Source: Betaproteobacteria bacterium
Lineage (GTDB): Bacteria; Pseudomonadota; Gammaproteobacteria; Burkholderiales; Burkholderiaceae_C
NCBI GenBank assembly: GCA_016704535.1
Contig: JADIZZ010000007.1
Location: 223,866 to 287,865, forward strand
DNA: 64,000 nt
Reading direction: 5' to 3'
This document shows, piece after piece, positions 55,248-62,772 of this stretch. Within the stretch, counting starts at the first letter, position 1. Each line of letters opens with the position of its first letter. Made by a program: the position numbers and the translations under genes. The notes beneath the pieces were generated by a model that had not been told where the DNA came from, did no database searches, and saw nothing but the letters and a program-made list of their open reading frames with translations.

Positions 55248-55886
55248 TCATTTCGTCCCGAACAGCCGGTCCCCCGCATCGCCCAGCCCCGGCACGATGT
55301 AGCCGTGGTCGTTCAGCCCGCGGTCGATGGCCGCGGTGTAGATCGGCACGTCGGGGTGGTGGCGCTGCAGGTTGTCTATGCCCTCGGGCGCCGCCACCAG
55401 GCTGACGAAGCGGATAGACCGCGGCTTGGTCTCCTTGAGCCGGTCGACCGCGGCCACTGCCGAGTTGCCGGTGGCCAGCATCGGGTCGAGCACGATGGCG
55501 TCGCGCTCGTCCATGTTGTGCGGCATCTTGAAGTAGTACTCCACGGCCACCAGCGTCTTCGGGTCGCGGTACAGGCCGACGTGGCCGACACGTGCGCCGG
55601 GCACCACCTCCAGCATGCCGTCCAGGAAGCCGCTGCCGGCGCGCATGATGACGACGAACACCGTCTTGCGGCCTTCGATCACCGGCGAGCGCATTGTTTC
55701 CAGCGGGGTCTCGATCTCGATCAGCTGCGTGGGCATGTCGCGCGTGACCTCGTAGGCCATCAGCATGCTGATCTCGTGCAGCAGGCGGCGAAAGCTGCTG
55801 GTGGACAGGTCCTTCTGGCGCATCAGCGTGAGCTTGTGCTGCACCAGCGGGTGGCTGATCACGTGGACGGGGGCAGGGGTGGTCAT
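55248..55886 (-). CDS. upp: uracil phosphoribosyltransferase
   Basis: Tail of ORF 55248..56303. [15 protein letters not shown]...[11 protein letters not shown]...[18 protein letters not shown]. Confidence 0.95.
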
Positions 55887-55918
55887 CGTCGGGTCTCTGG
55901 CGGGGTGAGATCTGGAAG

Positions 55919-57217
55919 CTAGAACAGCGTGCCGTCGCTCTCGATCTTCAGCGGCGGTGCACCGTCGGGGCGCAGTTCGCTGGCGATCTCGCGCCCGGCT
56001 GCCCAGGTGCCGCCTTCCAGGATGCAGGCCAGCGGCAGTTCCTCGGCGGTCTTGCCGAGCTGTTCGCGCACCCGCACGGCCAGCTCGTCCAGCAGTGCGA
56101 CGGTGAGCGCGCGCCACTCGACGATGAAGTCGTCCTGCGCTTTCCAGCTGCGGGTGAGCGCGCGCGGGTCGCGCGGCACGATGACGCCGCCGTCGATGAA
56201 CAGGCCGCCGTTGCGGTACTCGGGCAGGCCGGTCAGCTCGTCGAGGTCGGTGACCCGCACGCCGGCCCATTGCAGCGGCTCCAGCAGCGAGTAGCTCAGC
56301 CACTGGCCGAGCTTGTGGAAGGGCACGTAGCCACCGGTCGTGGGGTCATGGTCGGCGCCGGCGCCTCTGCCGGTGGCGTCACCGGCCCAGCGGTGGGGCC
56401 AGACGTCGCCCGCGGGCAGCCCCTGCACGCGGCTGCCGGCCGTCCAGATCGGGCCCAGAACGCGCAACACTTCCCCCAGCACGGCGGCCGCGCTGACCTC
56501 GGTGCGGGTGCCGTTGTCGGTGAGACGGTCGTAGAGCAGGCCCGGGCGTGCGTTGCCGCCGACCCTTGCGCCTTCCTCGCGCAAAGCCGCGCCCAGTCGC
56601 ACCAGCAGCCCGGTGCGGCCCTCCAGGCCCACCACCGGGTTGGCCGGGCTGCTCTGGAGCAGGGTGCGCAGTGTGCTGACGTCGAGGTGTTCCAGCACGG
56701 CCGCATCGGCACGCAGCGGGTCGCCCGCCGTGGCCGAGAACGTGCCGTTCAGGAAGCCATGCCAGGTAGCCACGCCGAGGCCCTCGGAGCGCTGCAGCAC
56801 GAGGTCGGTGCCGGGTTCCGTGTAGCGCCACGATGTCCCGGCACCCGCATCCAGCAGTACGCTCACCACCGTGAGGTCGAAGCGCGCCCTTGCCGCGTCG
56901 GCCACGCTGCGGCCCTGCAGCAGCGCGTCGAGCACCGGCTTGCGGTCGATGTCGCCGGCCTCGAAGTGCCGCCAGCGGCTGTGGTACGGGATGTTCAGGT
57001 CGGGAAAGCGCTTCAGCGTCAGCGCCACCACCCGCGCGGCCACCGCGGGCAGCGCACGGCGGTCGATGGTGAAGTACTCGCTGACGTTGTCGTCGGCTGC
57101 GCGCAGGATGGCCGCGCAGCGCGAGCGTATGGTGCCCGGGTCGCGCAACAGCGCCAGCGGGTGGCGCTTGTCGGGCGCGACTTTCAGCAAGGCCCGGCGT
57201 TCTTCACTCAAGTGCAC
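55919..57217 (-). CDS. URC4/urg3 family protein (DUF1688)
   Basis: 432 aa, GTG start. [33 protein letters not shown]...[11 protein letters not shown]...[10 protein letters not shown] is recalled as the DUF1688/URC4 pattern. Not verified by HMM. Confidence 0.7.
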
Positions 57218-61807: not shown

Positions 61808-61809
61808 CG

Positions 61810-62772
61810 ATGAGGGCTGCTCTGGCGGCGGCCGTGCTGGCCGCCTGGGCCGCCGTGGCCCAGGCGCAGCCGGCGATCATCTTCGAGCTCGGCGGCAAGA
61901 ACGACAAGAGTTTCGGCACCGCCGCCTGGGAGGGCGCCGAGCGCTGGAAGAAGGCCAGCGGCAAGCCCTATCTCGAATTCGAGATCGCCAATGCCGCGCA
62001 GCGCGAACAGGCCGCGCGGCGGTTCGCGCAGCGCGGCGCCAACCCCATCGTCGGCGTCGGCTTCCCGCAGGCCAGCAGCATCGAGGCCGTGGCGCGCGAG
62101 TTTCCGAAGCTGAACTTCGCCATCGTCGACATGGTGGTGGCGCTGCCCAACGTGCAGAGCTTCGTCTACCGCGAACACGAAGGCGCCTTCCTGGCCGGGC
62201 AGCTGGCGGCGCTGGCCAGCAAGACCGGCAAGCTGGGCTTCGTCGGCGGGCAGGACATCCCGCTGGTGCGCAAGGTGCTCTGCGGCTACGAGCAGGGCGC
62301 GAAGTACGCCAACCCGAAGGTGCAGGTGATCAGCGCCATGACCGGCACCACCAACGCCGCCTGGACCGACCCCGCGCGCGGCGCCGAACTCACGCGCACG
62401 CAGGCTGCGCAGGGAGCCGACGTGATCTTCGCCGCCGCCGGCACCACCGGCCTGGGGGTGCTGCAGGCCGCGGCCGACCTCGGGCTGCTGGGCATCGGCG
62501 TCGACAGCAACCAGAACGGCTTGCACCCGGGGCGCATGCTCACGTCGATGCTCAAGCGCACCGACGTCGCGGTGTTCCAGGCCTTCAGCGGCGTGCAGCC
62601 AGGCATCACCTCGCTGGGGCTGAAGGAAGGCGGGCTCGACCTGGCCTACGATGAGCACAACGCCAGGCTGGTGACGCCCGAGATGCGGCGCCGGGTCGAG
62701 GCCGCCAAGGCCGACATCGTGGCCGGGCGCATCCAGGTCATCGACTACACGGCGGCGATGGCCTGCAGGTGA
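61810..62772 (+). CDS. BMP-family (PnrA/Med-like) periplasmic nucleoside/sugar-binding protein, with no adjacent ABC partners
   Basis: Tail of ORF 60259..62772. ATG lies 2 nt after the receptor stop. Signal peptide [30 protein letters not shown]...GFVGG...GIGVDSNQ. Confidence 0.8.

Follow-up and report, generated by a model that had tools for sequence, protein, structure and literature searches.

We analysed a 64,000-nucleotide stretch of contig JADIZZ010000007.1 from a Betaproteobacteria bacterium of the Burkholderiales (assembly GCA_016704535.1), henceforth referred to as the window. It contains a six-gene locus in which four minus-strand genes, encoding a PhyH-family dioxygenase, the uracil-catabolic (URC) proteins URC1 and URC4 and a uracil phosphoribosyltransferase (upp), face the genes of a TonB-dependent receptor (TBDR) and of a BMP-family binding protein (Table 1). 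On balance, the locus appears to be a fusion of two separable modules, URC1-URC4-upp on the one hand and a PhyH/TonB receptor pair, usually accompanied by BMP, on the other. The two modules of the window are now predicted to form one transcription unit, because the PhyH stop codon overlaps the URC1 start codon. More doubtfully, we propose a joint functional reading with two parts. PhyH, the receptor and usually BMP would form a route from the outer membrane to the cytoplasm for 2'-O-methylated nucleosides, or for nuclease-resistant methylated dinucleotides, released by RNA decay, and URC4, with its predicted Qng1-like fold, would split 5-phosphoribosylurea into urea and ribose 5-phosphate. Protein families, conserved residues and gene-order statistics were read directly from the sequences, and from these we infer all substrates and the transport route. 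The URC core, its clustering in bacteria and the activity of PHYHD1 (published December 2025) are already known. The conserved bacterial PHYHD1/TonB-receptor(/BMP) module and its fusion to URC genes are new relative to the literature that we searched.

The separability of the two modules rests on gene neighbourhoods in relatives. We ran a one-genome-per-species scan with a URC4 alignment, which yielded 591 confirmed loci; all URC4-anchored counts are given for the best 80 of these 591. URC1 lay beside URC4 in 77 of the 80 loci, and a linked upp followed URC4 in 70. The dioxygenase gene was present in 15 loci, the receptor in 13 and BMP in 21. All PhyH-bearing loci came from Burkholderiales-type genomes, and their URC4 proteins were 54-78% identical to that of the window. 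The adjacency of PhyH, receptor and BMP, reported for the window in an earlier note on this DNA, was found to be conserved in a Rubrivivax/Leptothrix-like clade of the Burkholderiales. Across URC loci overall, co-occurrence of PhyH with URC1/URC4 is limited, at just 15 of 80. Look-ups anchored on the other genes gave a complementary picture. In all three PhyH-anchored look-ups, the receptor, BMP and lipB followed one another on one strand, divergent from PhyH, which was itself followed by a variable insert (a TRAP transporter, a TPR/AAA protein of ~900 aa or one hypothetical gene) and then by URC1 and URC4. When the receptor served as anchor, PhyH was the divergent neighbour in six look-ups out of six and BMP followed the receptor in four of the six, with URC1/URC4 within 10 kb of the receptor in just three. 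Loci with receptors sharing 58-93% identity with the window receptor retained the divergent PhyH/receptor arrangement. Because the receptor-anchored look-ups keep the pair even where URC1 and URC4 are missing, we conclude that the PhyH/receptor pair is a conserved unit and that the URC genes are its frequent but separable neighbour.

Individual loci (designated by L numbers) illustrate the range of arrangements. In L093, an MFS (major facilitator superfamily) gene follows PhyH, the divergent receptor is followed by genes for a tetratricopeptide repeat (TPR) protein and a PAP2 protein, and neither BMP nor URC genes occur. L095 has the same syntenic slot, with phoH and ybeY converging on PhyH and the receptor divergent from it, and has no URC genes and no BMP. 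In L096, upp follows PhyH, while the divergent receptor is followed by BMP, then ada, then a BMP-ATPase-permease-permease series and, further on, cdd and PNP. The receptor is missing from L029, where ada, PhyH and URC1 run in one direction opposite a BMP-ABC-(cdd)-PNP-deoC operon (ABC, ATP-binding cassette), and L076 shows a PhyH-BMP...ABC-URC arrangement. Nucleoside-related genes thus surround PhyH in more than one architecture. PhyH lies directly upstream of URC1 in the window and in L003, L007, L010, L015, L019, L029, L098 and L099. In many relatives the two genes are split by inserts, namely a TRAP (tripartite ATP-independent periplasmic) transporter, a TPR protein or hypothetical proteins, and the link between PhyH and URC is therefore looser than the ATGA overlap in the window suggests. 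Translational coupling of PhyH to URC1, as seen in the window, is one of several arrangements. Among the inserts, we observed a TPR protein of ~880-990 aa (MalT-like, AAA_22) together with a small exported protein encoded on the opposite strand between PhyH and URC1 of L001-L005, L009, L012, L084 and L097. The gap is filled in other relatives by the TRAP transporter (DctPQM, on the other strand).

The families of all proteins were assigned by Pfam and NCBIfam profile searches. The dioxygenase matches Pfam PhyH (PF05721, E 2.3e-42), and its full-length match to human PHYHD1 (PDB 2OPW/3OBZ, E 2.2e-63) contrasts with E 8e-5 for human PHYH (2a1x). It shares 45% identity with human PHYHD1, 41% with its tobacco counterpart and 34% with that of Fadolivirus, all three of which are active enzymes. 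H149, D151 and H245, which form the HxD...H iron triad, and R256, taken to bind 2-oxoglutarate, are invariant in 16 PhyH sequences, and the invariant positions include the equivalents of human H156 and D158. The residues of human PHYHD1 for which docking suggested ribose or base contacts (K102, H105, Q139, W277 and F161; PMC12709175) correspond to K95, H98, Q132, W275 and F154 of the window protein. Across the 16 sequences, the equivalents of K102, Q139 and W277 are invariant, that of H105 is conserved in at least 90%, and that of F161 is Phe, with Tyr in two. By these sequence features the window protein is a bacterial member of the PHYHD1 clade proper, and not of PHYH or other PhyH subfamilies. 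It has no signal peptide and is therefore predicted to be cytoplasmic.

Stonkus et al. (NAR 2025; PMC12709175) reported that PHYHD1 of human, mouse, zebrafish, fly and a fungus demethylate free 2'-O-methyl nucleosides, an activity shared by related enzymes of plants and giant viruses and by a separate type found in bacteria, FJS. The products are the nucleoside and formaldehyde, 5'-mono- and triphosphates are not substrates of PHYHD1-type enzymes, and human phytanoyl-CoA hydroxylase is inactive on 2'-O-methyl nucleosides (PMC12709175). Full-length homology, the iron triad, the Arg and the docking-inferred contacts are common to these demethylases and the window protein, and we consider it likely that the latter is a 2'-O-methyl-nucleoside demethylase. 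The difference lies in the gene context, which was not analysed for bacteria in that paper: the window gene is paired with a TonB receptor and BMP and fused to URC genes.

These results bear on the proposal of the earlier note that the dioxygenase adds an oxidative step to the URC pathway itself. On such a model, PhyH would hydroxylate uracil, thymine, UMP, ribosylurea or the C3 fragment, and the receptor and BMP would import pyrimidines for URC. The overlap of the PhyH stop with the URC1 start, the direct upstream position of PhyH in the window and eight related loci, and the BMP-type transporters that URC clusters of distant bacteria carry for themselves would all agree with such a role. However, the proposal is weakened because 65 of the 80 URC loci have no PhyH, because the PhyH/receptor pair persists without URC1/URC4 in L093, L095 and L096, and because PHYHD1 enzymes, whose ribose-contact residues are kept in the window protein, reject nucleotides (PMC12709175). 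The unrelated genes between PhyH and URC1 in many relatives argue in the same direction. An extra URC step is thus probably not what PhyH provides, and we assign the proposal as a whole a low probability.

The BMP protein (Pfam Bmp PF02608, E 1.8e-52) has a signal-peptide-like N-terminus of the Sec type, with AQA before and QP after the predicted cleavage, and not of the lipoprotein type. Its relatives in the Protein Data Bank (PDB) carry BMP/PnrA-type names, e.g., "Basic membrane protein D" and "Membrane lipoprotein tmpC", and we take their ligands to be nucleosides. We computed a neighbour-joining tree of 23 BMPs from related loci and distinguished three clades. The first consists of distant proteins (~30% identity) whose genes lie within URC operons and run in the same direction as the ABC genes there. 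Members of the second (64-70% identity) head BMP-ATPase-permease-permease operons, several of which run into cdd, PNP and deoC. The third comprises the receptor-linked BMPs, including the window protein, and is sister to the clade that heads the nucleoside ABC operons; in L019, a receptor-linked and an ABC-operon BMP stand side by side. The receptor-linked BMPs are intact, have a signal peptide and form a conserved clade. The simplest reading is that the receptor-linked BMP is a duplicated binding protein that works with the receptor and docks onto a nucleoside ABC permease. Two side observations concern this part of the module. In L087, a second 2-oxoglutarate-Fe(II) oxygenase (2OG-FeII_Oxy_3, 376 aa; L087:3403-4533) directly follows the receptor-linked BMP. 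In the gene group around the PhyH/receptor pair at L093:7087-14969, the gene after PhyH encodes a 577-aa MFS metabolite/H+ symporter that may be an alternative inner-membrane route.

We searched the 64-kb window for the missing partners. With the BMP-type ABC ATPases and permeases of relatives as queries, tblastn found none in the window, only an unrelated single-domain ATPase at ~20.2-20.9 kb, and a search with relatives' genes found no homologues of PNP, cdd, deoC, ada, cytosine deaminase, the MmyB regulator or TRAP DctM in the same 64 kb. The nucleoside ABC permease would thus have to be encoded outside the window. It had been stated previously that the locus has no ABC permease, ATPase or regulator, which is correct, and for BMP-type ABC parts the statement extends to the whole window. 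The accompanying description of a complete system from the outer membrane to the cytoplasm does not stand for the window, which has no BMP-type ABC inner-membrane part and no PNP, cdd, deoC or ada; the search covered neither transporters of other types nor genes for urea utilisation. We found no description of an orphan BMP directly behind a TonB receptor in the literature searched, in agreement with the view that this pairing is unusual. The BMP/PnrA importers of T. pallidum, S. pneumoniae (PnrA) and Borrelia (BmpD) use the same binding-protein family, but the window has no accompanying ATPase and permease genes, its BMP gene instead stands 2 nt after a TonB receptor gene, and the signal peptide is of the Sec rather than the lipoprotein type. 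BtuB-BtuF-BtuCD and FhuA-FhuD-FhuBC are routes that combine a TonB receptor, a periplasmic binding protein and an ABC importer. In the window, as in these routes, a gated receptor is encoded beside a periplasmic binding protein, and an ABC permease presumably takes over from the two. The window differs from them in that the binding protein is of the BMP class and not of the siderophore/B12 class, the presumed ligand is a nucleoside and the permease is unlinked.

The receptor has a Plug domain (PF07715, E 2.8e-15) and a TonB_dep_Rec_b-barrel domain (PF00593, E 1.1e-35), a signal-peptide-like N-terminus, the TonB-box-like sequence "TITVTA" and a C-terminal Phe. No substrate subfamily (siderophore, haem, B12 or SusC) was assigned, as all NCBIfam models scored far below their cut-offs (the best, TIGR01783, reached 110 bits vs 223.5). 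The receptor is labelled "iron complex outermembrane receptor protein" in source annotations, and its nearest PDB matches are siderophore and colicin receptors, which align via the plug region only; there is no close solved structure. We give somewhat less than even weight to the idea that methyl-nucleosides are the specific ligand. At L092:7689-8750, a receptor homologue of Novosphingobium sp. RL4 (42% identity) is divergent from a gene for a class-II 3',5'-cyclic-nucleotide phosphodiesterase, which hints weakly that ligands of this receptor family may be related to nucleotides.

The spacer shared by PhyH and the receptor contains two conserved motifs, GTGTTGCGTGCAGGCATCG at 59354-59372 and GCATCATCCGATGC at 59433-59446. 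Orthologous spacers are 112-223 bp long, and the best conserved blocks in 15 of them, when aligned, were a GATGATGCC core, mostly with GC after it, and GATGCC-N6-GCAACA. The second block abuts the start of PhyH, which has no Shine-Dalgarno sequence, and the GATGATGCC core is part of a palindrome, GCATC-N4-GATGC, in the window. This 9-mer was present in the PhyH/receptor spacer of 10 of the 17 related-locus sequences extracted. It occurs 32 times in 1.43 Mb of loci, and the 22 copies outside these spacers lay nearly all inside genes. We did not find it upstream of URC1 or other nucleoside genes in the related loci and draw no regulon. A perfect 10-bp inverted repeat, CCGGCCAGGG-N6-CCCTGGCCGG, was also observed at 59455-59480, ~40 nt upstream of the receptor start; it is apparently not conserved in the aligned spacers of relatives. 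An Rfam scan of positions 54500-64000 at E <= 1 returned no riboswitch or other RNA family. A consensus scan gave no sigma-70-like site, and terminator-like matches were all inside genes at near-background frequency; these promoter and terminator results are uninformative in DNA of 70% GC.

We considered whether the three genes are neighbours by coincidence. In that case, the receptor would be an ordinary iron-chelate receptor, BMP would be what remains of a decayed ABC operon, and PhyH would act as a generic hydroxylase. The iron-complex name in source annotations, the siderophore and colicin receptors matched through the plug region, and a BMP gene without accompanying ABC genes are what would be expected. 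Yet the receptor is far below every siderophore, haem and B12 cut-off of NCBIfam, the spacing of 2 nt between receptor and BMP in the window is tight, and the intact, signal peptide-bearing BMPs of a conserved clade do not look like remnants. Because both the pairing, retained over a wide range of receptor divergence, and the motifs in the shared spacer are conserved, coincidence is unlikely, and we regard it as the least probable of the explanations considered.

The URC core named by the earlier note among the four minus-strand genes is genuine by profile matches as well as by linkage in related loci. The product of upp matches Pfam UPRTase (E 3e-76) and TIGR01091 (277 bits vs a cut-off of 208). 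Profile searches with 57204-58457 identified an N-terminal GTP_CH_N domain (PF12471, E 1.3e-81) followed by GTP_cyclohydro2 (PF00925, E 1.5e-15) and a score of 775 bits against NF005536, whose cut-off is 403, upholding the URC1 assignment. For 55919-57217, a full-length match to DUF1688 (PF07958, E 1.6e-137, profile positions 2-420 of 420) confirmed URC4, and its homologues are named "URC4/urg3 family protein" in source annotations. The URC1-URC4-upp core is widespread in bacteria and is not new; Andersen et al. 2008 (J Mol Biol 380:656) reportedly noted the bacterial linkage of URC1, URC4 and a phosphoribosyltransferase gene. The tightly linked order URC1-URC4-upp is common to the window, 70 of the 80 related loci, Azospirillum and Cupriavidus. 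On plasmid p4 of Azospirillum brasilense, URC1-URC4-upp-BMP-ATPase-permease-permease-amidohydrolase are consecutive, and in Cupriavidus the URC trio is followed by a homologue of the Azospirillum amidohydrolase. The betaproteobacterial form of this protein scores as a cytosine deaminase, whereas the Azospirillum homologue, which closes the URC1-URC4-upp-BMP-ABC operon, is annotated merely as an amidohydrolase. Common additions to the core are a cytosine deaminase gene, a BMP-type ABC importer and an MmyB-like regulator after URC4.

We further observed that in 26 of the 80 URC loci the gene directly 3' of upp scores as cytosine deaminase (NF005748, 792 bits), often followed by a glutathione S-transferase gene. 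The 26 comprise L038 (15930-17204) and 25 other loci, and L089:15726-17015 goes with the same observation. This gene does not occur in the window. The MmyB-like regulator (HTH_31 + MLTR_LBD) follows URC4 in L011, L012, L016, L017, L019, L025, L026, L048, L070 and L098, and relatives bearing it have, on the opposite strand, a gene for an 80-aa membrane protein resembling the ATP synthase c-subunit. The window has neither.

Over 408 residues, URC1 of the window shares 78% identity with a protein whose crystal structure is known (PDB 7EJ3/7EEV), and the Cys-X10-Cys-X-Cys stretch of URC1, ECNGSDVFGSDICTC, is identical in that protein. We take these structures to belong to a published "UTP cyclohydrolase" study. 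A literature search for PDB 7EJ3 retrieved no citing paper, and the sole match for "7EEV" was unrelated. The "UTP cyclohydrolase" paper (Zhang et al., ACS Catal 2021;11:8895) is known to us as a cited URC-pathway reference. Given full-length identity at this level, with no difference from the bacterial enzyme detectable in the sequence, URC1 is a probable UTP cyclohydrolase. The view that bacterial URC homologues are essentially uncharacterised is thus outdated for URC1. Likewise, the statement that the chemistry of URC1 and URC4 is unresolved no longer applies to URC1 and remains valid for URC4, for which our literature search found no biochemistry.

The Qng1-like fold of URC4 emerged from structure prediction. 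We modelled the window protein with AlphaFold2 (AF2; pLDDT 83, pTM 0.81) and searched the model against PDB with Foldseek. The sole significant matches were 11 chains of Qng1/QNG1 (DUF2419), all at E <= 7e-7 with probability 1.00. The best had E 1.6e-8 and a TM-score of 0.57 by query and 0.74 by target, TM-scores by target ranged from 0.70 to 0.74 across the 11 chains, and the next match outside Qng1 had E 0.6. URC4 is 16-18% identical to Qng1 and ~110 residues longer. Many Asp and Lys residues, e.g., D271, K302 and D342, are invariant in the URC4 alignment. Qng1 is an N-glycosylase of the helix-hairpin-helix fold that prefers a 5'-monophosphate and has queuosine 5'-monophosphate as its biological substrate (PMC9881137), and in yeast URC4 takes ribosylurea to urea (PMC7530994). 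If a UTP cyclohydrolase works like GTP cyclohydrolase II, its product should carry a ribose 5'-phosphate. The predicted fold, the yeast genetics and this expected product together suggest that URC4 is an N-glycosylase for 5-phosphoribosylurea. Both enzymes would split the N-ribosyl bond of a ribose-5'-phosphate compound (PMC9881137 for Qng1), although the leaving group would be urea for URC4 and is a deazapurine for Qng1. DUF1688 goes unmentioned in the Qng1 structure paper (PMC9881137), nor did we find the relationship elsewhere in the literature searched, and we count the predicted fold as new. It turns the long-open question of DUF1688 into a concrete assay, the release of urea from phosphoribosylurea.

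With these assignments, the route that we propose would run as follows. Scarce nucleosides, plausibly with a methylated ribose, would be caught by the receptor and BMP and passed across the outer membrane and the periplasm. Their import into the cytoplasm would fall to an inner-membrane transporter that is encoded elsewhere and is most likely the nucleoside ABC importer with the sister-clade BMP. PhyH would then use O2 and 2-oxoglutarate to convert the methylated nucleoside to the plain nucleoside and formaldehyde, and enzymes encoded elsewhere would release uracil or cytosine for the URC module or for salvage. Upp would convert uracil to UMP, and housekeeping kinases would presumably raise UMP to UTP. 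URC1 would open the uracil ring of UTP and release pyrophosphate, a product and a release that accord with the analogy to GTP cyclohydrolase II, and URC4 would set urea free by cutting the N-glycosidic bond of ribosyl-urea, probably in its 5'-phosphorylated form.

Compared with the Lachancea kluyveri URC pathway (URC1, URC4 and URC6), the window has the same three families, but none of the six genes of its locus encodes a urea amidolyase (the search of the window did not extend to urea-utilisation genes) or a cytosine deaminase. A pathway regulator is missing as well, in contrast to yeast, which has URC2, and to many bacterial relatives, which have the MmyB-like regulator. The translational coupling of an upstream PhyH sets the window apart from known URC systems and is seen only in one Burkholderiales clade.

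Several observations weigh against our functional reading. The assayed bacterial demethylases are of the FJS type and only 24-28% identical to the window PhyH, and the inserts between PhyH and URC1 described above loosen the connection to uracil catabolism. The two best receptor homologues in annotated plasmids and chromids (42-45% identity, in Niveispirillum and Novosphingobium) are not beside BMP, PhyH, URC or nucleoside genes; their neighbours, a family-5 binding protein and a siderophore-interacting protein in Niveispirillum and the phosphodiesterase in Novosphingobium, give no clear ligand clue. Nucleosides are small enough to pass through porins, which leaves the need for a TonB receptor unexplained. 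The BMP family includes riboflavin binders and a putative B6 binder (NCBIfam). For URC4, a profile of 20 sequences searched against PDB retrieved no chain at E <= 10 and hence no link to Qng1. A 46%-identical PhyH on an Azospirillum ramasamyi plasmid is encoded among methyltransferase and TauD genes and not among nucleoside genes. We treated this protein, the sole plasmid match, as a paralogue with another role; it has no His equivalent to human H105.

Some of these points would fit a module for another scarce compound, such as another modified nucleoside, a riboflavin or B6 cofactor or a methylated sugar, that came to lie beside URC only through a shared lipB-ybeY slot. The best NCBIfam match of the window BMP is indeed a "putative B6" binding-protein model, far below its cut-off, and BMP members that bind riboflavin are known, although the name given for PDB 4iil is just "Membrane lipoprotein TpN38(b)". 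Compounds that are scarce or bulky are the typical ligands of TonB receptors. The second oxygenase beside BMP in L087, the MFS and PAP2 phosphatase genes that replace BMP in L093, and the lipB...ybeY frame that is conserved even without URC genes (L095) are also compatible with a different ligand. This explanation is nevertheless unlikely in our view. A substrate class has been demonstrated for the PHYHD1 clade, and PhyH keeps the contact residues. Binding proteins from operons with cytidine deaminase, a PNP-family phosphorylase and a DeoC-family aldolase form the sister group of the receptor-linked BMPs, and PhyH stands between ada and URC1 in L029, where no receptor is present.

If methylated nucleosides are the substrate, the module suggests that bacteria actively scavenge methylated RNA debris. 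Our literature search for bacterial gene clusters devoted to methyl-nucleoside catabolism found none beyond two Vilnius papers. The receptor would be, to our knowledge, the first TonB-dependent nucleoside-type transporter in Proteobacteria, and the locus offers a candidate nucleoside-type ligand class for TonB receptors. The module would give a physiological context for the bacterial orthologues of human PHYHD1, and the conserved pairing of a bacterial PHYHD1 with an energised receptor and a binding protein of the nucleoside type would back the reported PHYHD1 function with independent genomic evidence. A further implication would be that freshwater and soil Burkholderiales compete for methylated nucleosides. 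The role proposed for URC4 would, if true, fill the last unassigned step of the URC pathway.

We verified the gene models of the locus by reading the sequence. Every coordinate, junction and family given for the six genes in the earlier note was exact. On the minus strand, the PhyH stop codon shares an ATGA (58454-58457) with the start codon of URC1, the URC1 TGA (57204-57206) and the URC4 GTG start (57215-57217) produce a 14-nt overlap, and 32 nt separate the URC4 TAG (55919-55921) from the upp ATG (55884-55886). The PhyH ATG (59351-59353) and the TBDR ATG (59522) bound the 168-bp spacer, and the receptor stop (61805-61807) precedes the BMP ATG (61810) by the 2 nt noted above. The window is ~70% GC and contains many spurious open reading frames. 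A gene caller based on a codon-usage model trained on conserved genes of the locus family returned all six genes, with the TBDR start 33 nt and the BMP start 24 nt further downstream. The 14-nt overlap presupposes that URC4 starts with the GTG at 57217, which is uncertain: translation could also begin at one of three in-frame TTG codons (57211, 57190 and 57148), and conservation of URC4 begins only at residue 24.

Table 1 Features of the locus, in order along the window
Feature	Position	Strand	Evidence
upp (URC6 equivalent), uracil phosphoribosyltransferase, 212 aa	55248..55886	-	Pfam UPRTase, TIGR01091
URC4/urg3 family protein (DUF1688), 432 aa, proposed phosphoribosylurea N-glycosylase	55919..57217	-	Pfam DUF1688, AF2 model
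URC1, GTP cyclohydrolase II-like, probable UTP cyclohydrolase, 417 aa	57204..58457	-	Pfam, NF005536, PDB 7EJ3/7EEV
PHYHD1-clade Fe(II)/2-oxoglutarate dioxygenase, 299 aa, proposed 2'-O-methyl-nucleoside demethylase	58454..59353	-	Pfam PhyH, PDB 2opw/3obz
Divergent control region between PhyH and TonB receptor, 168 bp	59354..59521	.	Alignment of orthologous spacers
TonB-dependent outer-membrane receptor (TBDR), 761 aa	59522..61807	+	Plug + TonB_dep_Rec_b-barrel
BMP/PnrA-family periplasmic binding protein, 320 aa	61810..62772	+	Pfam Bmp

On both sides the locus borders on housekeeping genes, with lipB after BMP and phoH and ybeY at the opposite end; the codon-usage gene caller returned these three genes as well. 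Beyond phoH-ybeY, at 51029-53563, lie genes for a histidine kinase (~610 aa) and a LuxR-type response regulator. This pair keeps its position in many relatives (L001-L005, L009, L012, L017, L018, L048 and L095).

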